Assembly (NCBI GenBank): GCA_045597925.1
Contig: JAZLLB010000200.1
Coordinates: forward strand, 13,574 to 77,573
Length of the DNA stretch: 64,000 nucleotides
Direction: 5' to 3'
From: Acutalibacteraceae bacterium
Lineage (GTDB): Bacteria; Bacillota; Clostridia; Oscillospirales; Acutalibacteraceae
In this document: positions 52,188-62,961 of the stretch, in pieces
Layout of the letters: every line of letters begins with the position of its first letter
How positions within the stretch are numbered: position 1 is the first letter of the stretch
Made by a program: the position numbers and the translations under genes
Notes under the pieces: generated by a model
Seen by the model: only the letters and a program-made list of their open reading frames with translations
What the model was told of the DNA's origin: nothing
The model's database searches: none

Positions 52188-53417
52188 ATGGCAAATCCAA
52201 AAAGCAAGGTTCTTCCGGGAATTATCGAAGTATATCTTTTTGTCCTTGTAGCTTTCTGTTTTGATGCATTTTACAGGAACTTTATGGGTGATGCGTCAAT
52301 TCTCGGAAACAATCTATACGGTTATGTTCTGGGCCTTGTGTCTGTCGGCGTTGCCTGCGTTGCCAAGAAAAAAAACGTAAAGTCATACGGTGTTATTCTT
52401 AATCCTAAAGCTATTTTTAAAGGAGTGTACAGGGGCGCGCTTTTTTCGCTGATTCCCACGGCGGTTGTTGCGGGATTTTCCGCTTTAATATATGCGGCTT
52501 TTGATTTTGAGTGGGCGAAGGTGCAGTTTGTTACGCCCAATCATAACTATGCAGGTGATGTCAGTACACCTATCACCATAGCTGCTTATTTAATCTCAAC
52601 GATTATATGTGTTTTCGCAAAAGAATTTTTCTTCAGAGGCTATGTTATTAAAACAGCCCGCTCGGTTTATATGTTCTTTGATGCGAATGCTATTCAGATT
52701 GCTCTTTACGTTCCGATGATGCTTATACTTCACGCGAAAAATATAGCTATGCACCAATATTCGGGAGATATGATGAATCCCGCACTGATGATATCAATAG
52801 GCGTATTCTGGTTTGTTCATGAATTTATAACCGCGCTTAAGTGGGGACTTTTGGCAAGAGTAACAAGAAATATATGGGCTTCATATTTTGACCATTTTTT
52901 CTATAATTTCATTACCTACTCTCTGCTTTTCAGCCAATCGAAAATAACAAATTATCCAACAATGGTGAAACTTCTGATTGTCCAGATTATTTCACTGATA
53001 ATGGTATGGTATTTTTATAAAAAGAAGCGTATCGAAAGAAAGCAGAAAAAACTTCAGCACGAATATGAAAAAATCGAAAAAAGACACGAAAACAGTGAAA
53101 AACACGCATTGAAATCAGAAGAAATTAATGAAAGGCATGCGAAAAAAAATCAGGAAATTCTTGAGGATTACAATGAAGGCGGTGTTCAGAAAAGAATTGA
53201 TGATTTCTCGAACTCGAACCTGCTTCGGCACAGACATATATCATCTAAATCCCATGATTATAAAGACGAAAAGCTTATGGATTTAAAGGATATAGAAGTT
53301 GATAAATTTTACTATGAATACGCAAAAGAGATTGAGCGTAATCATCAGAATAAAAAAGAGACTGCCGCTGAAAAACTTCAGCAAAGTATATCTAAAGACA
53401 AAAAGCATAATAAATAA
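52188..53417 (+). CDS. CPBP (CAAX/Abi) family intramembrane protease with ~130-aa K/E/H-rich C-terminal tail
   Basis: Motifs 'KEFFFRGY' (E-x3-R), 'FWFVHE' (F-x3-H) and 'DHFFYN' (H-x3-N). Confidence 0.7.
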   Translation: MANPKSKVLPGIIEVYLFVLVAFCFDAFYRNFMGDASILGNNLYGYVLGLVSVGVACVAKKKNVKSYGVILNPKAIFKGVYRGALFSLIPTAVVAGFSALIYAAFDFEWAKVQFVTPNHNYAGDVSTPITIAAYLISTIICVFAKEFFFRGYVIKTARSVYMFFDANAIQIALYVPMMLILHAKNIAMHQYSGDMMNPALMISIGVFWFVHEFITALKWGLLARVTRNIWASYFDHFFYNFITYSLLFSQSKITNYPTMVKLLIVQIISLIMVWYFYKKKRIERKQKKLQHEYEKIEKRHENSEKHALKSEEINERHAKKNQEILEDYNEGGVQKRIDDFSNSNLLRHRHISSKSHDYKDEKLMDLKDIEVDKFYYEYAKEIERNHQNKKETAAEKLQQSISKDKKHNK

Positions 53418-53422
53418 ACAAA

Positions 53423-53468
53423 AGCAATCTTAAGGCAACAAAAACGTTTCCTCAAGATTGCTTTTTTT
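53423..53468. terminator. bidirectional terminator between the CPBP gene and the phage-like operon
   Basis: AGCAATCTTAAGG / CCTCAAGATTGCT (one mismatch), flanked by A/T runs on both sides. Confidence 0.75.
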
Positions 53469-53479
53469 AAACTGATTAT

Positions 53480-54313
53480 TTATTTAATCGCGATATAGCA
53501 ATAAATTCTGCCTGCTTCATTGAGCATGGTTCTCGTGTTTCCCTCAACATCTGTATGAATCGTGAAGCCTGATGACAGTATTGAAATCCCCTGTGTGCTG
53601 TAGCTGTCTGAGCCGAATCCGAACTGCGGACTTACAGTCTGAGTTTCAAAATCCATTTCAAAAGGAGTACTGTCATAGCAGAAAAGCATCATAAATTTCG
53701 GTTTGAATCCGATATTTATTACTCTGCTTGCTGTTCCGGTTCCGAAATAATAACCAACAAGCACCGGTGAATTCCATTTTTCCTTATCTTCCGCTGTAAC
53801 ATGAATGGCTGCATCATTAAGATGAGAGCCGCAAAGGAAATTCTTATCCATAAATGAGAAGAAATTCTCGTCGGCTACCTCAGCGGGGCAGAAATCAGCG
53901 CTTATTCTGAAGCTGGCTGTTAAAACCAGCGCACTGGTATCTCTGTCTGACTGAATTTCATCGCACACCGACTCGGTTATATTAAGGTCGGTGTTAAATG
54001 TCAGCTCATTAATGATTTTGGTGAAAATCTCATGACACGCAGAACCGCCGTAGGAATACGGAACGCAGATGCTGAGTCTTGCATTGATATCTGCCGAACG
54101 GCAGTATTCCTGACGTTCAAGTACGCCGTCATCGTTTTCAATAAACTTATCGATGATTTTCATATCTCTGATGCCGACGGCAACAATAGCTTTTTTTAAA
54201 GGAACAGCCTTGTTTATGGGCGGAAACTCCGTGAAAAAATTAATATCTTCAAGCTGCTCTCTTTCTGAAAGCCATTCTACTATTCTTGACGGTAAAGCAA
54301 TAATTGAATCCAT
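53480..54313 (-). CDS. phage neck/tail-completion-like N-domain fused to an unknown C-domain (277 aa)
   Basis: Last gene of the head operon (TGATG overlap, GGAGGTGG SD). The position corresponds to the gp17/gp10-type slot after the stopper. Assigned by position only. Confidence 0.4.
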   Translation of the reverse strand: MDSIIALPSRIVEWLSEREQLEDINFFTEFPPINKAVPLKKAIVAVGIRDMKIIDKFIENDDGVLERQEYCRSADINARLSICVPYSYGGSACHEIFTKIINELTFNTDLNITESVCDEIQSDRDTSALVLTASFRISADFCPAEVADENFFSFMDKNFLCGSHLNDAAIHVTAEDKEKWNSPVLVGYYFGTGTASRVINIGFKPKFMMLFCYDSTPFEMDFETQTVSPQFGFGSDSYSTQGISILSSGFTIHTDVEGNTRTMLNEAGRIYCYIAIK

Positions 54314-54660
54314 CAGTCCACCTCCACAACTTCTCTGATAATTGCCCAGATATACACCGGGTTTTCCGAATAATAAACCTTTTCGGCTCGGTCGATTGTG
54401 TATTTCACGCCGTCACATTCGACAAGACCCGTAAGAGTGTCAAGCTCGGTCAGGTCATGCTCAGGAGGACCTATATAAAGATATTTTCCCTGATTATCAA
54501 AACCAATAACCGTATATACGCCGTCAAGATACATCTTGTTTTTATATCTCAGCGGCTGAATAAAACCGTGAAACACAGGTGAACGCCAGCCGTCTTCTGT
54601 ACTGAGAGTTATTTCTCTGCCGAATTTATCAAACATCTTTTTAAAGCTCGGCGTTCTCAT
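54313..54660 (-). CDS. phage head-closure / head-tail joining protein-like (115 aa)
   Basis: Size, position and the pattern 'F.GFIQPL..........G.....Y.......D......V..DGVKY.I' are typical of head-tail adaptor (stopper) proteins. ATGA overlap. Confidence 0.5.
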   Translation of the reverse strand: MRTPSFKKMFDKFGREITLSTEDGWRSPVFHGFIQPLRYKNKMYLDGVYTVIGFDNQGKYLYIGPPEHDLTELDTLTGLVECDGVKYTIDRAEKVYYSENPVYIWAIIREVVEVD

Positions 54661-55037
54661 ATGTCAACCTTTCCGACAAAGAAGCCGTTGTCGTCCATAA
54701 GCGGAATCAGTTTTACGGCGGCTTCTTCACACAGCACCTTTGCGGATTTTATTTTTTCATCAGACGCTCCTATATCATGTGAAACACTCACATCTCCCGC
54801 TTTGAATGACGTAATACTGTCATAATCGGCGGATTTTTCTTTTATGCAGAGCATATAAAACGCTCTTGCCGCCGCTGCCGAAATCACTCTCGGGTCGGCA
54901 AAATCAGCACCTCTTTTAAGCTCTTTTTTCAGTGAATCAAAGCACTGCCTGCACAAATCAACTGTCTGCTGATAATCGTCATTACTCACATCAGTGAGGT
55001 GCTTCAATGCGTCAAAAACGTCAAGCTCGTTTACCAT
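54657..55037 (-). CDS. phage gp6-like head-tail connector/adaptor-like (126 aa)
   Basis: Immediately downstream of the capsid gene. N-terminal 'ALKHLTDVSNDDYQQTVDL' resembles the connector 'LK.HLRVD..DD' start. Confidence 0.5.
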   Translation of the reverse strand: MVNELDVFDALKHLTDVSNDDYQQTVDLCRQCFDSLKKELKRGADFADPRVISAAAARAFYMLCIKEKSADYDSITSFKAGDVSVSHDIGASDEKIKSAKVLCEEAAVKLIPLMDDNGFFVGKVDI

Positions 55038-56074
55038 TCCGCGCCTGCTTCCAACGCCATTACACCGCTTGCGCCTTCAAAGATTTTAGCGAAGCCGTCG
55101 ATTGATGTTATAACAACCTGCTCAAGCTGATGGTCGATAACTTTTCCGTATTCAACCTCGATATCGCCGACCTTGAGATGCTCGAGAGCACAGCTTCTGT
55201 CCAGACCCACAATTGCGGAAGCGGGAACAAGTCCCTTTGCCGAAATAAGGTCAGCACCGAACGGGGAGATAAGTTTGCCTGTTCCGTGGCAGTTGAGACC
55301 TGCGGTTGAATCTCTGAATTCATCCATCTTGATAAGTGTTGCCGCAACAGCGGGAGTGGTAACAAGAGTTGTGAGTTTATACGGTGAGAAACCTGCCCAG
55401 AAATCAACAAGATTGTTGAATGTAAATGAGCTGACCTCATCAACGGTAACGGCGTTTGTTCCTTCCTCGTCATCACCGTCATAGATTGTTTTCATAGCGT
55501 CAACTGTGATGTTGTGAGCCATTGCGGCGCCGATTTTCTTAAGAGCAACAGCGACAACGTCAAGATGCTGAAAACGGATTGCGTCATATGAAGCGGAGAA
55601 CATCTTGCCTCTTTTACGAAGGCTTACAAGACGGTCGCCGATGGTGTACTGTGCTTCAGGTACCTGTCCGCCTTCCGCGAGACCTGTCCAGAGTGCTCTT
55701 TTCTGAGCGTCAGTAGCTGTGTCAAAATCGAGCTTGAAATCAACAGCTCTGTAGTCCATAGAATCAACATTTGTTGTGCATGCGACAATGCTTGAAAGGT
55801 AGTTTGCCTCCTCAATTCCGCAGCGGATAACTCTTGTGAGATATGCGGGGAAAAGCACCGCGGCACCAGATGTCTGGAAGAACTTTCCTACAACACTGCT
55901 GTCGGGTCCTGCGACTTTGATATCGAATCTTTTAAGCTGACGCTGAAACGCGTCAAGACCTTCAAGAGAAGTTCCCTTATAGTTTTCGGAAGGGTCAACC
56001 TCTTCAAGCATCTGTGTAAAAGTGCGGCCGTTGCCGTACATCCCTTTTTCGAGTCTTATATTATCAAATGACAT
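55031..56074 (-). CDS. phage major capsid protein (HK97-fold type)
   Basis: 347 aa in the slot after the protease/scaffold. AGGAGG SD. Composition and length are typical of small HK97-like capsid proteins. Confidence 0.75.
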   Translation of the reverse strand: MSFDNIRLEKGMYGNGRTFTQMLEEVDPSENYKGTSLEGLDAFQRQLKRFDIKVAGPDSSVVGKFFQTSGAAVLFPAYLTRVIRCGIEEANYLSSIVACTTNVDSMDYRAVDFKLDFDTATDAQKRALWTGLAEGGQVPEAQYTIGDRLVSLRKRGKMFSASYDAIRFQHLDVVAVALKKIGAAMAHNITVDAMKTIYDGDDEEGTNAVTVDEVSSFTFNNLVDFWAGFSPYKLTTLVTTPAVAATLIKMDEFRDSTAGLNCHGTGKLISPFGADLISAKGLVPASAIVGLDRSCALEHLKVGDIEVEYGKVIDHQLEQVVITSIDGFAKIFEGASGVMALEAGAEW

Positions 56075-56089
56075 TAAAAAACCTCCTGA

Positions 56090-57061
56090 TTAAAAAATAA
56101 AATCGTTATTGTCTTTTGTTCCTTTTTTTATTGTGCAGGTAAGCTGTGGTTCAAGGGGAATAAGTCTTGCCGCTTTCTGCGACAGAGATTCCCTTAAAGC
56201 CTTCAGCTCATCTATTTCAAGCGTCAAGCACATTTTTTCCAGTGCGGAAGCATCAAAATCGTCAAGAATAATTGATGAGTATCTGATAATCTCGGCAGTG
56301 ATATCTTTTCGGTATTCTCTGCCGAGTGATGCCTCTTTTTTCAGTTTTGTGAGCTTTTCGCCCATCTTTTTTGAAAGAACGCTGTCTATCAGGATTTCCC
56401 CTCCTGACTTCATGGATTTTTCGCATTCAAAAAAAGTTTTGGCAACCTTTCTTTTCTCAAAACTCTTTGTTACGCCCGCGCCCGGCTGTGCGGGAACGGC
56501 GACGAAAGACCATTCGTACGCATCCTTCGGGTCACTGAGTATACTGTAGCAAAGCTTGCCGCCGTATTCAGCACCTTTCACGTGAGAGCATTTTTCGCCT
56601 CTTAAATCATTGCCGCAGATTGAGCAGATATGATTTTCAATTCCGCAGCAGACACTGACTTCTTTTAAAATTCCCGCATTGATTTTTTCCATAAGCTCGG
56701 CGTTTTCTTCTGTTTTCGGCATATAGGCTTTTGCTCTGAGAGCCTTGTAAGGCTTACCGTAGGATGTCAGCTTATCCCCTGCCGAAACTACCTGAGCGGA
56801 ATAAATTCTTGCGGTCTGATTTCTGCTTGAATGAACGTGGTCAAAAATTCCCGTAACGCCGATAAAAAGCTCTTTCAGCTTTTCAAGAGCGGCATCGTCA
56901 AAGCAGTCGCCGTCTCGGTCGATTTCATTGTCGCAAAGATTAACGCTGAACGTAAAAACCTCGTCGGCGGAAAGCTCTTTATATGTGAATCTGTTTATCT
57001 GCGCCAGTTCCTCAACAGGAATGTACCCGCCGCTTTTCTGTGAATTAAAGTTTTCAGCCAT
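56090..57061 (-). CDS. prohead serine protease (S78/XkdF-like) fused to a C-terminal coiled-coil scaffold-like region
   Basis: 'DRDGDCFD', 'GIFDHVHS', 'KEVSVCCG', 'YEWSFVAVPAQPGA'. Helical, charged C-terminus (aa ~200-300). AAAGGAG SD. Confidence 0.65.
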   Translation of the reverse strand: MAENFNSQKSGGYIPVEELAQINRFTYKELSADEVFTFSVNLCDNEIDRDGDCFDDAALEKLKELFIGVTGIFDHVHSSRNQTARIYSAQVVSAGDKLTSYGKPYKALRAKAYMPKTEENAELMEKINAGILKEVSVCCGIENHICSICGNDLRGEKCSHVKGAEYGGKLCYSILSDPKDAYEWSFVAVPAQPGAGVTKSFEKRKVAKTFFECEKSMKSGGEILIDSVLSKKMGEKLTKLKKEASLGREYRKDITAEIIRYSSIILDDFDASALEKMCLTLEIDELKALRESLSQKAARLIPLEPQLTCTIKKGTKDNNDFIF

Positions 57062-58226
57062 TGCTTTCTCCTTTCAGTTCGTTTTCAATCTTTTTTCTCT
57101 GCGCGTCATAAAGTTTTGCTTTGCTCAGCTCAACCTCGTCCTGAAGCGTAATATCGTCCCAGATGATTTTCGGCTTGTCGGCAATTCCGCGGAGCCTTAA
57201 AAATGTATTGCATATTCTTAAAATAACGGGCGAAAGAATCCGCCTGTACGCTTCAAGCTCGCTTGTGAGAATATCCGCCTGCTGGCTTGACATTCTTTCC
57301 GTTGATGACCAGGAGAGCCCCAGCAGAAACGGAGGAAGACCTGTTTTCGCGACAATCTGCTCAAGCATAAGCCTTGCGGGTACTTCGCAGTCAAGTATCT
57401 GACTGTCTGCGCCGATAGCCTTGATGTTAACATCACCCACGGCGATAAAGTCCCTTACAGGACCGCCTGATTTCATGGTTTCGCCCCATTCTTTAGCAAT
57501 CTGCTGAGCGCGGTCTTTCGCGTAGGCTCTGTCCATCGCATCATTCTGGGGCTTGTATGTTACTGCGTAACGTACATTTCCCGCACGCTCCCAGTTTTCA
57601 CCGATTGTGGTGAATATTTTAGTGATAATTCCGCTTACAAAAGGCAGACCTTTTAAAAGTGAAACACCGCACACACTGTCACCTTCGGGATTCAGCACGG
57701 ATAAAAGCACAAGATTCTGATACTTAACCGGAGTTACCATTCCGGGAAAGCCTGTGCATACAAGTGTTCTCATACCGTCATCGCTTTTTTTCAGCTCAAT
57801 ATTTTTTAAATCCGCGTTAAAAAGAGCCGCGAGATTTCCTTTTTTGTCAGTCACCATTTCGCCAACAGCGGTGCCGTAGGTCAGAAGCTGCTCAAAATAA
57901 GATGATATGAATTCATAAATTCCGTATCTGTTTGAGCCGACCGGAACGGATTCAAGAAAATCATTTATTATTTCGGTGTTTCTTTCATTGAAGCATTCAA
58001 TTTTGAAGCCGACCGTCAGGCGCACCAGCTTGTATATAGCCGCATCAATAACGGGAACGGCTTCACGAAGCTCACGGTAAAGATTTGTCTGTCCGTTCGC
58101 AAGGGGAACGTAACCGTTTAAAAAGTTGAACGGATTGGGCTTGTATGTCTGCGGCACCGAAACCGCAGTTTTTGAGTCTGTTATTCTTTTTAAAAGTCCC
58201 AAACTGTTACTCCTCTCTGTCAACAC
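57054..58226 (-). CDS. phage portal protein
   Basis: About 390 aa between TerL and the protease. The track start is GTG 58226. TTG 58202, with AGGAG 7 nt upstream and 4 nt after the TerL stop, is a plausible alternative. Confidence 0.75.
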   Translation of the reverse strand: MLTERSNSLGLLKRITDSKTAVSVPQTYKPNPFNFLNGYVPLANGQTNLYRELREAVPVIDAAIYKLVRLTVGFKIECFNERNTEIINDFLESVPVGSNRYGIYEFISSYFEQLLTYGTAVGEMVTDKKGNLAALFNADLKNIELKKSDDGMRTLVCTGFPGMVTPVKYQNLVLLSVLNPEGDSVCGVSLLKGLPFVSGIITKIFTTIGENWERAGNVRYAVTYKPQNDAMDRAYAKDRAQQIAKEWGETMKSGGPVRDFIAVGDVNIKAIGADSQILDCEVPARLMLEQIVAKTGLPPFLLGLSWSSTERMSSQQADILTSELEAYRRILSPVILRICNTFLRLRGIADKPKIIWDDITLQDEVELSKAKLYDAQRKKIENELKGESNG

Positions 58227-59481
58227 TCAGGGCGATAAAATCGTTTTCCTCTCTGCGCATCGCCGTTGTGACGAAATAACGCAAATCGTCCATAGCGTGG
58301 TCGTTCTCTTTAATCGGAGCGTCACGCAGCGATTTTTCGTCCCATCTGTAAAGTGAAAATTCTCTTAATGTGTCTTTGCATTCGGGGGAAATAAAAAGCT
58401 CTTTTTTCTTAAGCGCATCGGATACCTGCCGTATTCCGTCAATAACATCATTTTTAGCGGGGATAACCTTATATTTTTCCTCGCGGCGTATACATTGAAT
58501 GAAGCTCGCTGCGGAGGGATCGATTATAATTGCTTCGATTTTTCGCTCACCTATTAAATCCGCGATAGCGCGGCAGTGTTCATAATCCGTTCTCTGCTCT
58601 CCCTCTTTGCGCGAATCATAATAATATTCCTTTATTCTGTACCATTTGCCGCTGAAAAGTCCCCACAGTCCGGCGGAGCAGGGGTTCACCGTTCCGTAGT
58701 CGCAGGAAACATAATATTCATCTGCTTCACTGTCGGGCACAGGCTTCACATGAATATCGTAACTGAACATCGGGTAAACGGTACCGTATGCAGCGACCCA
58801 TTTGCCTTCTACAAAACGCTGATAAAACGCTCCGGAATAAAGAGCTTCGTAACGCTTCCTTATACCCGGCGAAAGTCCCGGATTGTCCCTCATTGTGAAA
58901 TGAAGATAAAGGCAGTTCTTTTCATCGTGCTTTTTAATCCACTCTTTATAGAACCAGTGCATCGGATGCTCTGGGTTGCAGTTAAACCACAGCCTTGAAT
59001 TTTCAAGTGAGCATCTGGCGATTGCCTGTTCCACAAATGAGCGGGGCATAAGAGCCACCTCGTCAAGAAGAACACCGCCGAGTGTCATTCCCTGTATAAG
59101 TGAAGCCGAGCCTTCATCTTTTCCCCCGAAAAGATAAAAGCGGTTCATTCTGTTCCCGTATGAAATTTCAATAACATTCTTTGAAAGCTGTTCTCTGCAT
59201 TCAAAACCCAAGGAGGTAAGTAAAGGCTTCATCGGCACAATCAGATTTCTTTTAAGTGATGCTATTGTTTTTCCGCAAAGGGCAAATGAAGTGTTATTAA
59301 AATCATAAAAGGACCAGAAAATAAACGAAAGTGAAGTGCAGACGGTTTTGCCTGAGCGCACCGCGCCGTCGCAGATAATCGCGTCTTTGCTTCTGTAGGG
59401 CGAATTTCTGCTCCACCAGCTTAAAACGGTGAGCTGCTTTTTTGAGAATTTCTCAAAGCCTGCCGCTGTGCTATTGAGCAT
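58207..59481 (-). CDS. phage terminase large subunit (PBSX/TIGR01547-like)
   Basis: Walker A 'DGAVRSGKT', Walker B-like 'GGVLLDE', nuclease-half 'IIDPSAASF' and 'NDHAMDDLRY'. GAAGGAGG SD. Confidence 0.9.
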   Translation of the reverse strand: MLNSTAAGFEKFSKKQLTVLSWWSRNSPYRSKDAIICDGAVRSGKTVCTSLSFIFWSFYDFNNTSFALCGKTIASLKRNLIVPMKPLLTSLGFECREQLSKNVIEISYGNRMNRFYLFGGKDEGSASLIQGMTLGGVLLDEVALMPRSFVEQAIARCSLENSRLWFNCNPEHPMHWFYKEWIKKHDEKNCLYLHFTMRDNPGLSPGIRKRYEALYSGAFYQRFVEGKWVAAYGTVYPMFSYDIHVKPVPDSEADEYYVSCDYGTVNPCSAGLWGLFSGKWYRIKEYYYDSRKEGEQRTDYEHCRAIADLIGERKIEAIIIDPSAASFIQCIRREEKYKVIPAKNDVIDGIRQVSDALKKKELFISPECKDTLREFSLYRWDEKSLRDAPIKENDHAMDDLRYFVTTAMRREENDFIALSVDREE

Positions 59482-59962
59482 CGAAGTCCTCCTTCAATGC
59501 AGCGGCGCTTTTCTCAATGGCATCATAAAAGAACGGCGCGTTGCCGCTACTCTGAGAGGAAGAAAGCTCATAAAGTTTTTCAAGCGCTTTAAGACGGTCA
59601 AAGAATTTTATTTCAATTCCTCCGCCTTTCGGCCGTTTGATTTCACTGACATTCATCAGATTAAGTGCTTCGATTTTTTCGGCTGTCAGTTCCTCGTCAC
59701 CGCTGAGAATCAGCGAAAACGCGTCAGCGGCCGAACCGAAAGCAAGTGTGCGGCATCCGCTGACAATCTCGCTTTGTGTGACAGGCATTACGGAATCAAT
59801 TCTTTCAATTTCAGCCTGAATATCGGCTCTGCATATAAGCTTTGCGGCAGCTTTCGCCGTGAATATTCCGTAGCCTGCGTTTGCCGCCGCCATACGCGGA
59901 CTTCTGCACTGACAGTAGAAAAGACAGAACAGTTTTTCTCTCGATTTTAGTTTGTTTCCCAT
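59471..59962 (-). CDS. phage terminase small subunit (Terminase_4-like)
   Basis: 'REKLFCLFYCQCRSPRMAAANAGY...AAKLICRADIQAEIERI' and 'IKFFDRLKALEKLYEL'. AAAGGAG lies 6 nt before ATG 59962. Confidence 0.8.
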   Translation of the reverse strand: MGNKLKSREKLFCLFYCQCRSPRMAAANAGYGIFTAKAAAKLICRADIQAEIERIDSVMPVTQSEIVSGCRTLAFGSAADAFSLILSGDEELTAEKIEALNLMNVSEIKRPKGGGIEIKFFDRLKALEKLYELSSSQSSGNAPFFYDAIEKSAAALKEDFDAQ

Positions 59963-59977
59963 CTGTACTCCTTTCAC

Positions 59978-60006
59978 GAAAGGCACATATTTTGAAAATG
60001 CCTTTC
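59978..60006 (-). promoter_or_regulatory. inverted repeat abutting the terS ribosome-binding site
   Basis: GAAAGGCA at 59978-59985 and TGCCTTTC at 59999-60006 (8-bp arms, 13-nt loop). On the coding strand, GTGAAAGG occurs twice and the second copy is the SD. Confidence 0.45.
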
Positions 60007-60065
60007 ACCTATAGTTTAAAATCGGGGTTTTGTGAAGCAAAATATTGCAAAATCGGCGTTTTTTG

Positions 60066-60100
60066 CAAAAAAAAATTTCAGAGAACCGAAAATTCTCTGA
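60066..60100 (-). terminator. terminator of the cobW-cobW2-rluA transcription unit, just upstream of the phage-like operon
   Basis: TCAGAGAA / TTCTCTGA stem at 60078-60100, with a 9-nt T-run on the minus strand. Confidence 0.7.
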
Positions 60101-60223
60101 AAAATGTATTTTTTATATTTATTTTTCAACTGTAACTGCGGTGGCAAAGCAACACTGAAAATCAGCCGTCTTTGTATAAATAAGATGCACTCGCAAAGTG
60201 TAGCGGGAGGATTGTGAAGCCTC

Positions 60224-61812: not shown

Positions 61813-62961
61813 TCACCTCAGACGGAACAGCTCGGCGAGAGCTTCCTCGTTGATTTTTGAGCCGATAACGCAGATTCTGCCGATAATATCAGCTGAGCCG
61901 GTGCGTACGTCAGGCTCACCCGGAACATAGTCAAAATGAATCCATTCACCGTTTTCACTGCTGACAATTCCTTTTGAGCGGAGAATTGTTCCGTATTTTT
62001 CCTCATCCTCAAGAGTCTTGAGAATTGCTTCCATTTCTTCTGCTGTATATTTAACCGGAGTTTCCCTGCCCCAGCTGGTGAATACATCGTCAGCGTGATG
62101 ATGGTGATGCCAGTGGTGTTCATGGTCGTGACAGCCGCAGTGTTCATCATGATGATGGTGCTCATGCTCGTCTTCATCATCGTCGTCGTGGTCATGGTGA
62201 TGATGGTGGTGGCAATGCTCATGTTCGTCTTCATCATCGTCATCATCGTGGTGGTGATGGCAGCAGCATTCTTCATCGTCATCATGGTCATGGTGGTGAT
62301 GATGTCCGCCGCATACAGGGCACTCGTCCTCTTCACTGAGCTTTTTAAGTTCATCTTCAAGCGATACGTTTTTCTTTTCCATAGCTTCAAGAATCTGCGC
62401 GCCTGTGAGCTGTGCCCAGTCGGTTGTAACGATAACCGCGTCTTTATTATGCTCACGCAGAAGCTCAACCGCCTTTGCGGTTTTCTCTTCGCTTACAAGT
62501 CCTGTATGCGAAAGAATGATTGTCTGCGCGTACTCAACCTGGTCATTGAAAAATTCGCCGAAGTTTTTCATGTATACCCTGCATTTGCCCGCGTCAACAA
62601 CCGTTGTGAAGCTGTTGAGCTGCAAAGCGTCTGAGCCGACATCTCTTACGGCGCGGATGACGTCGCTCAGTTTGCCGACACCCGAAGGCTCAATAAGGAT
62701 TCTGTCCGGATTGTACTGCTCAACAACCTTTTTGAGAGCTTCACCGAAATCACCCACAAGACTGCAGCATATGCAGCCGGAATTCATTTCCGTAATTTCA
62801 ACACCGGCATCTTCAAGAAATTTACCGTCGACGCCGATTTCGCCGAATTCGTTTTCAATAAGAACTGTTTTTTCACCTGAGTAAGCCTCGGCAATCAGTT
62901 TTTTGATGAGTGTGGTTTTGCCCGCACCTAAAAATCCCGAAAAAATATCAACCTTTGCCAT
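61813..62961 (-). CDS. COG0523/CobW-family metallochaperone GTPase with an ~80-aa His/Asp/Cys-rich insert
   Basis: 'GFLGAGKTT', 'GCICCS', 'EPSGV'. Insert at aa 214-292 (62086-62322). CobW_C-like end 'LRSKGIV...WIHFDYV'. Confidence 0.9.
   Translation of the reverse strand: MAKVDIFSGFLGAGKTTLIKKLIAEAYSGEKTVLIENEFGEIGVDGKFLEDAGVEITEMNSGCICCSLVGDFGEALKKVVEQYNPDRILIEPSGVGKLSDVIRAVRDVGSDALQLNSFTTVVDAGKCRVYMKNFGEFFNDQVEYAQTIILSHTGLVSEEKTAKAVELLREHNKDAVIVTTDWAQLTGAQILEAMEKKNVSLEDELKKLSEEDECPVCGGHHHHHDHDDDEECCCHHHHDDDDDEDEHEHCHHHHHHDHDDDDEDEHEHHHHDEHCGCHDHEHHWHHHHHADDVFTSWGRETPVKYTAEEMEAILKTLEDEEKYGTILRSKGIVSSENGEWIHFDYVPGEPDVRTGSADIIGRICVIGSKINEEALAELFRLR

Follow-up and report, generated by a model that had tools for sequence, protein, structure and literature searches.

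Among Ruminococcaceae, Oscillospiraceae and Christensenellaceae, gene transfer agent (GTA)-type packaging of DNA commonly takes place, in fragments of 4–10 kb (Borodovich et al. 2026, PMC12946183); it is widespread in Oscillospirales, where most of the gene clusters responsible still await identification (PMC12946183). The FpGTA of Faecalibacterium forms tailless-looking capsids of ~40 nm that hold ~9 kb of DNA and is encoded by two operons (Borodovich et al., Nat Commun 2026, PMC12946183). Operon I spans 10.5 kb and ten open reading frames (ORFs), and the second operon encodes baseplate and lysis functions (PMC12946183). The candidate TerS of FpGTA is reported to have lost its DNA-binding domain (PMC12946183), and the capsid protein is annotated as a member of the N4-gp56 family, with a Prp-type protease (PMC12946183 supplement). 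Here we describe a gene cassette at positions 53480–59962, on the minus strand, of a 64-kb stretch of Acutalibacteraceae DNA (the whole stretch is hereafter referred to as the window). It comprises eight co-directional, intact and translationally coupled ORFs of phage origin. We consider it probable, though far from certain, that the cassette is what remains of a PBSX-type myovirus, now fixed in the chromosome, passed on vertically and kept as a head-only DNA-packaging module that is tailless and GTA-like or PBSX-like. A gut Oscillospirales GTA gene cluster has so far been named for Faecalibacterium only, and the cassette is a second, unrelated and far more reduced candidate. No description of this cassette family was found in the literature, Borodovich et al. 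2026 being the only related report found. The genes of the cassette are as follows:

59471–59962, minus strand: TerS, small terminase, 163 residues (PF03592, E 1e-8; phrog_2606/51)
58207–59481, minus strand: TerL, large terminase of the PBSX family, 424 residues (PF03237/PF04466; phrog_2, E 9e-52; TIGR01547)
57054–58202, minus strand: portal, 382 residues, TTG start at 58202 (phrog_30703, E 6e-132)
56090–57061, minus strand: 323-residue protein, probable prohead protease-scaffold fusion, XkdF-like (phrog_16951, E 9e-100)
55031–56074, minus strand: major capsid protein (MCP), 347 residues (PF25209, E 5e-9; phrog_3922, E 2e-69)
54657–55037, minus strand: g6, 126 residues, probable head-tail adaptor (weak phrog_541 match, E 0.009)
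54313–54660, minus strand: g7, 115 residues, probable head-closure or stopper protein (weak PF10665 Minor_capsid_1 match, E 0.045)
53480–54313, minus strand: g8, 277 residues (no match in family searches)

TerS starts at ATG 59962 behind an AAAGGAG Shine–Dalgarno (SD) site, has homologs of 160–162 residues and keeps the full Terminase_2 match, its N-terminal region included. TerL, in which the Walker A motif GAVRSGKT was found, matches the NCBIfam model TIGR01547 ('PBSX family') with an E value of 1e-60 and 205.9 bits, against a curated cut-off of 105. In the 323-residue protein, residues 31–137 give a weak match to Peptidase_S78_2 (XkdF; E 0.026) and the C-terminal half matches coiled-coil proteins only; its gene position and these weak matches make it a probable protease-scaffold protein. 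The MCP has no NCBIfam match to the N4-gp56 family. The position of g6 after the capsid gene is kept in 55 loci, and g7 contains the conserved motif PLRYKNKxY. PDB sequence searches with g6, g7, the MCP and the protease-scaffold protein returned nothing significant. An earlier reading of this DNA (the original prediction) had described the same eight intact co-directional genes with broadly these identities, and the profile searches agree with it, if weakly for g6 and g7.

As read from the coordinates, cassette genes overlap by 11, 8, 7, 4 and 1 nucleotides (nt), and one pair is separated by 15 nt. SD sites lie ahead of seven of the eight starts, as had been anticipated, the site of g6 being weak. 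The remaining junction, between TerL and the portal, had been left with two possible starts. Since an SD site is present solely upstream of TTG 58202, and homologous portals are 382 residues long (379–385 across homologs), we place the portal start at TTG 58202 and the junction becomes a 4-nt gap; the 20-nt overlap implied by the alternative start is discarded.

Like FpGTA, the cassette belongs to a gut Oscillospirales host, forms an operon for head and packaging functions in the chromosome with neither replication nor integration genes, and is near-ubiquitous in its host group. The particles of FpGTA look tailless, and those predicted for the cassette would also be without a tail. FpGTA has an N4-gp56 capsid protein and a Prp-type protease, whereas the cassette has a PF25209/phrog_3922 capsid protein and an XkdF-like protease; the 10.5-kb, ten-ORF operon I of FpGTA is complemented by a second operon for baseplate and lysis, whereas the cassette consists of eight genes. 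Because the capsid and protease families differ by annotation and the terminase of the cassette is PBSX-type, we treat the two as independent domestications. Homology to FpGTA was rejected by comparing the annotated capsid and protease families and not by sequence alignment. The assumption in the original prediction that GTAs carry tails is out of date, given that the tailless-looking FpGTA, from a different lineage, was published in 2026 (PMC12946183).

With PBSX (xtmA-xtmB-xkdE-xkdF-xkdG-xkdH-I-J and further genes), the cassette shares the family of its TerL (TIGR01547), the gene order from TerS to the neck, a chromosomal and non-replicative state and, by a weak match, the XkdF-like protease. 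The cassette differs from PBSX in that the window lacks sheath, tube, tape-measure, baseplate, fibre and lysis genes (present in part in relatives), in that no Xre/Xpf-type regulator is adjacent, in that its terminator is fused to a fibre-tip-like domain, and in its host, a clostridial gut family instead of Bacillus.

In the remaining ~57 kb of the window, where every other ORF of at least 80 residues was scanned, Pfam matches are to housekeeping families exclusively: GH92, transporters, LexA, sortases, cinA, thiI, iscS, ctsR-mcsAB-clpC, phoH-ybeY-era-recO, mutS2, radical SAM enzymes, rluA and two COG0523 genes, among others; about a dozen ORFs have no Pfam match. These scans returned no integrase, tail, lysis, repressor or replication family. 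The 64-kb window also holds no tRNA gene, no Rfam family and no homolog of the baseplate genes carried by relatives. No att-like repeats were found flanking the cassette, and GC content is 44.9% in the cassette and 43.9% across the rest of the window. The original prediction was right about the missing genes, the missing border repeats and the GC content; it needs one correction, in that some tail-derived sequence is present, within g8 (see below).

A small set of head and packaging genes with connectors and no tail genes is also characteristic of capsid-forming phage-inducible chromosomal islands (cf-PICIs), whose packaging module reportedly consists of TerS, TerL, portal, protease, capsid protein and connectors, as in the cassette. 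The cf-PICIs, however, are mobile: as satellites they carry int, alpA, rep and att and rely on helper-phage tails, and none of these features was found at the cassette. We regard it as very unlikely that capsids from the cassette, itself a non-mobile element, dock onto the tails of co-resident prophages in the manner of cf-PICIs: in addition to the lack of int, alpA, rep or att, the locus has a fixed position and diverges together with the chromosome, and its own terminator-like cap, normally a tail-side component, would presumably fill the docking surface for a finished tail. The lack of int, rep and att, the fixed positions within clades and the co-divergence with flanking genes likewise leave the satellite-type module that the original prediction had entertained unsupported.

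A portal search returned thousands of close homologs in metagenome-assembled genomes of Clostridia. In a scan of one genome per species, at least 586 genomes carried a portal relative, and the best 80 were inspected; almost all of these are labelled Acutalibacteraceae, Candidatus Fimenecus, Ruminococcus sp. or Clostridia bacterium. The order TerS-TerL-portal-protease-MCP-g6-g7-g8 and the gene lengths are kept in at least 60 of the 80 genomes, and lengths vary by only a few residues over dozens of species at 50–90% identity. Individual relatives have the eight genes, at near-equal lengths, in differing housekeeping contexts (rplM-rpsI with EF-G, GH95-HAD with Methyltransf_21, and an ECF transporter with ClpB), and the chromosomal position is fixed within clades. 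The original prediction had proposed checking for orthologous CPBP and rluA genes at the two borders; the closest relatives do keep the 409-residue CPBP-like neighbour, but GH95-HAD, not rluA, lies upstream. Within a syntenic clade of 15 species, the BLAST identities of cassette proteins co-vary with those of flanking proteins (Pearson r = 0.92), which points to vertical inheritance of the cassette. When a phage collection was searched with the portal, no bona fide complete phage with such a head module was found, the matches being five unverified virome scaffolds and a distant Microcystis phage only.

Computed against the closest relatives (portals 87–92% identical), the ratio of nonsynonymous to synonymous substitution rates (dN/dS) lies between 0.05 and 0.27 for all eight genes, at dS values of ~0.9–1.4 that are higher or saturated for g8. 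The ratios are 0.11–0.13 for TerS, 0.07–0.09 for TerL, 0.05–0.06 for the portal, 0.09–0.13 for the 323-residue protein, 0.07–0.08 for the MCP, 0.20–0.27 for g6 and 0.10–0.15 for g7. All eight genes are under strong purifying selection, and the relaxed selection typical of a decaying prophage is not seen. An inert prophage remnant that happened to stay intact would be in keeping with a locus in which head genes alone are left, with no adjacent regulator or lysis genes. Such a remnant is nevertheless highly improbable, being already contradicted by the dN/dS values, by gene lengths that differ no more than a few residues among dozens of species, and by stable synteny within clades. The stump of a deleted prophage, one of two origins offered in the original prediction, is thus dismissed by the selection on all eight genes and by their conserved order and length; the block is also neither strain-specific nor made of pseudogenes, portal relatives placing it in species after species. 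The other origin offered, a domesticated capsid and packaging module, is supported. Use of the shell as an encapsulin or another non-packaging capsid was considered and rejected, TerS, TerL and the portal being among the most constrained genes.

In being domesticated, vertically inherited, under purifying selection and without self-replication, the cassette resembles the RcGTA of Alphaproteobacteria, in which lysis and accessory functions are also unlinked to the head genes. By contrast, RcGTA stems from a siphovirus, has a complete tail and has been shown to package and transfer DNA; the cassette further differs in having a TerS with a full Terminase_2 profile match. Two features of GTAs are present at the cassette: a phage-derived structural cluster in the host chromosome without replication, integration or excision genes, in the window and in relatives, and vertical inheritance with purifying selection over a host clade.

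The last gene, g8, was examined by structure prediction. Its AlphaFold2 model (mean predicted local distance difference test score (pLDDT) 77) has two domains with a disordered linker between them, residues 145–173 being of low confidence:

53891–54313, minus strand: g8 N-terminal domain, residues 1–141, predicted tail-terminator fold (Foldseek against the PDB on the AlphaFold2 model)
53483–53794, minus strand: g8 C-terminal domain, residues 174–277, predicted DUF7483-type beta-sandwich, fibre-tip-like (model pLDDT ~95)

Residues 1–141 match lambda gpU, the collars of pyocin R2 and diffocin, T5 p142 and the SaPI1 neck (Foldseek probability 1.0, E from 3e-5; PDB entries 3fz2, 6u5f, 8v3t, 9mu3 and 8bcu). 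As modelled, this domain has the alpha/beta fold expected of a gpU-like terminator, and its gene directly follows g7, the probable head-closure gene. In BFVD, residues 174–277 match C-terminal parts of viral proteins that carry the annotation DUF7483 or 'tail fiber protein' (E 1e-4 to 1e-2), and two g8 homologs match PF24299 (DUF7483) with E 8e-6 and 25.6–25.7 bits, just under the 27-bit curated cut-off. The C-terminal domain has no significant fold match in the PDB, where only a weak cupin-like match to ToxT was found. In longer relatives, both parts are separate genes that flank the baseplate genes: a 141–195-residue gene after g7 aligns with g8 residues 1–140, and the last cassette gene (150–164 residues) aligns with residues 160–277. 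A profile search of 1.84 billion representative proteins returned fused proteins of ~270–282 residues, stand-alone N-terminal domains, stand-alone C-terminal domains and giant tandem-repeat proteins. From the fold matches, the alignments to separate genes and the profile matches, we conclude that g8 is a fusion of a terminator with a fibre-tip or adhesin-type domain, and in-frame deletion of the baseplate genes is the simplest explanation for its origin. The fused protein is 275–278 residues long in more than 100 clusters at 52–79% identity, with many invariant residues.

Nine Cys and His residues of g8 (C71, C83, C93, H94, C117, C142, C161, H164 and H171, within residues 71–171, ~53801–54103) are invariant in 45 homologs, a pattern that suggests a site, spanning terminator domain and linker, that binds metal or is stabilised by disulfides. 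The giant proteins, of 750–4000 residues, carry the C-terminal domain as 5–31 tandem copies (P0254, P0256, P0265, P0276, P0370 and others) and are presumably surface or fibre proteins.

The relatives order into a reduction series, from loci with sheath, tube and baseplate, through loci with baseplate only, to loci with none of these, such as that of the window. In the extended form, g7 is followed by a terminator-like gene, a sheath gene (phrog_279, E 1e-32), a tube-like gene, two small genes, a LysM protein, a hub, a 122-residue gene, a sheath-initiator-like gene, Baseplate_J, a 182-residue gene and a final gene of ~155 residues. The order of LysM, hub, Baseplate_J, sheath-initiator and sheath genes in these less reduced relatives is that of PBSX. 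The extended form has no gene of tape-measure size, the interval from the tube-like gene to LysM holding ORFs of ~130 and 98 residues only, which suggests that the contractile tail of these relatives is very short or unusual. A long form without sheath is found in 10 of the 80 genomes; the short form with a full-length fused g8, and nothing between g7 and the end, in 43 (window included); and a short form with the terminator domain alone in six. In a neighbour-joining tree of TerL and portal, built without support values, the baseplate-bearing forms are basal and paraphyletic, and most fused forms fall in one large clade that holds the window.

Several observations concern individual relatives. 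The extended form is exemplified by L135 (10753–17880) and also by L118, L119, L152, L163 and L168, with a small sheath protein of ~348 residues. L014 (12022–12357) and ~50 other loci have an extra gene of ~113 residues (phrog_4588, virion structural protein) after the protease-scaffold gene and ahead of the capsid gene; the clade of the window lacks this gene, which most relatives carry. One short-type clade has, on the same strand after g8, a protein of 750–815 residues (L004 14848–17277, L169 14931–17204, L005, L009, L010 and L044). The L169 protein of this type has LRR_5 repeats and a dockerin domain, and the L004 copy matches, with E 1e-41 to 1e-49, two PHROG families whose function is unknown. 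Proteins of this type may have an accessory role at a surface or in binding, or may simply be encoded next to the cassette.

The reduction series bears directly on the main rival to a head-only module, in which the cassette would be the head half of a split locus and a baseplate, fibre and lysis operon elsewhere in the genome would complete a short-tailed particle, as with operon II of FpGTA or the dispersed loci of RcGTA. FpGTA is arranged in exactly this way, the window has no lysis genes beside the cassette, related cassettes use XkdP-U-type baseplate genes, and the part of the source genome examined is one 64-kb stretch of a contig. Yet in g8 the terminator domain is fused in frame to a domain that long forms encode after the baseplate genes, so the intervening genes look to have been deleted rather than relocated, and no baseplate homolog was found in the window or, for any short-type locus, within 10 kb. 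A split locus is thus a serious alternative, though on this evidence an unlikely one.

If the cassette is instead a self-contained head-only module, its working can be sketched as follows. Some host signal would switch on transcription of the operon at the conserved promoter-like region ahead of TerS. Portal, protease-scaffold and capsid proteins would form a small procapsid, into which TerS and TerL would load DNA, probably that of the host, by the headful mechanism that PBSX uses. The adaptor g6 and the stopper g7 would then close the portal, and a ring of g8, expected to be hexameric by analogy with tail terminators, would cap the neck and display several fibre-tip-like domains that could bind cell surfaces. 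Release would require lysis functions encoded elsewhere, or cell death. Transfer of DNA to a recipient may or may not follow. A capsid kept for another purpose, such as setting protected extracellular DNA free in a programmed way, disposal of DNA under stress or PBSX-like killing or competition, could also explain the selection, since selection on the cassette is silent about delivery to a recipient, and PBSX is reported to package host DNA without injecting it and to act as a tailocin. However, PBSX killing needs a contractile tail, absent here, and the conserved fibre-tip-like domain of g8 suggests that the particles still bind something, so we consider a non-transfer role quite unlikely. 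Going further, these genes may by themselves make up a minimal but complete GTA without a tail, kept through the Acutalibacteraceae radiation, its sole 'tail' a terminator ring with adhesin domains, and one hitherto unrecognized source of the 4–10 kb DNA in gut virus-like particles (VLPs); we advance this tentatively, as something short of probable.

Several points weigh against a DNA-packaging, GTA-like module. Particles, packaged DNA and transfer are deduced from gene content, and the criterion that defines a GTA, a packaged fragment shorter than the locus, hangs on a capsid capacity that cannot be read from genes. The probable roles of g6 and g7 draw on gene position and weak matches. Pfam scans of the 64-kb window found no lysis genes linked to the cassette, and the search of the source genome covered one contig, so that partner loci may lie elsewhere. 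TerS has a full Terminase_2 match, unlike the FpGTA candidate TerS with its lost DNA-binding domain. Finally, the virome scaffold described next could be contamination.

The cassette is also present in five human faecal virome records that GenBank lists as 'Bacteriophage sp.' (MT835508.1, MT835769.1, MT835952.1, MT836604.1 and MT838993.1). In the longest, MT835508.1 (L001), the cassette is surrounded by NrdD, aldolase, Rnf complex, RpoA and SecY genes. This record is thus plainly bacterial chromosome from a VLP preparation, and its presence there fits GTA-type packaging; the other four are probably also bacterial chromosomal fragments and not phage genomes. IMG/VR holds 445 relatives, many of them trimmed to about cassette length. 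Among the 'phage' records of GenBank and IMG/VR, several are therefore probably chromosomal loci of this type, as is seen for MT835508.1. The cassette, widespread across a family with abundant members in gut and rumen, is thus a candidate source of the unexplained bacterial DNA in gut VLPs. If active, it would be the smallest known gene set for a DNA-packaging particle and would document stepwise loss of the tail during domestication, and its portal, capsid protein and g8 would serve as marker genes tying virome 'contamination' to a mechanism.

The cassette is bounded on both sides by terminators, as the original prediction had claimed, and is preceded by a conserved leader:

60076–60102, both strands: bidirectional intrinsic terminator, a 12-pair stem followed by a T-run (terminator scan; sequence read directly)
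59979–60052, minus strand: putative promoter and leader (clade-conserved motif, -10-like box and hairpin)
53423–53468, both strands: bidirectional terminator hairpin between g8 and the convergent 409-residue gene (-24.7 kcal/mol, z = -5.6)

The terminator at 60076–60102 insulates the cassette from the upstream rluA/COG0523 operon, and none of 200 shuffled sequences was as stable as the hairpin at 53423–53468. Within the leader, the motif TTTTGCAnnnTTTTnnTTCA (60033–60052) is conserved in the clade; the window has a single copy, where chance would give 0.08, and each of six close relatives likewise has one ahead of TerS. It is followed by a -10-like box, CTATAGGTGAAAGG, at 60001–60014 and by a 5' hairpin, GAAAGGCA/TGCCTTTC, at 59979–60006, just ahead of the TerS SD site. 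The related box CTWWRGKTGARAGG is found upstream of TerS in other clades, and the general order is upstream terminator, TTTTGCAnnnTTTTnnTTCA, a box close to CTWWRGKTGARAGG, a short hairpin and the ribosome-binding site. Corresponding leaders precede TerS in L003, L006–L008, L086, L088 and other clades, with a compensatory hairpin change (GAAGAG/CTCTTC) in L007; the fold itself, at z = -1.8, is not statistically unusual on its own. The leader region contains no canonical -35 element, and an alternative sigma factor or activator may therefore act there.

Two neighbours of the cassette deserve mention. The convergent gene at 52188–53417 (plus strand) encodes a 409-residue membrane protein with a weak CPBP-like match and a highly charged C-terminal half. 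It adjoins the cassette in the window and in L003, L006–L008, L087 and L088, with genes further out varying, and it evolves faster than the cassette (51–59% identity). On the other side, the gene at 61813–62961 (minus strand) encodes a COG0523/CobW-type GTPase with a stretch of ~80 residues that is almost wholly His, Asp, Glu and Cys. Another CobW-like gene, whose product ends in a DUF1980 domain, comes after it, and together the two look like a metal-chaperone pair.

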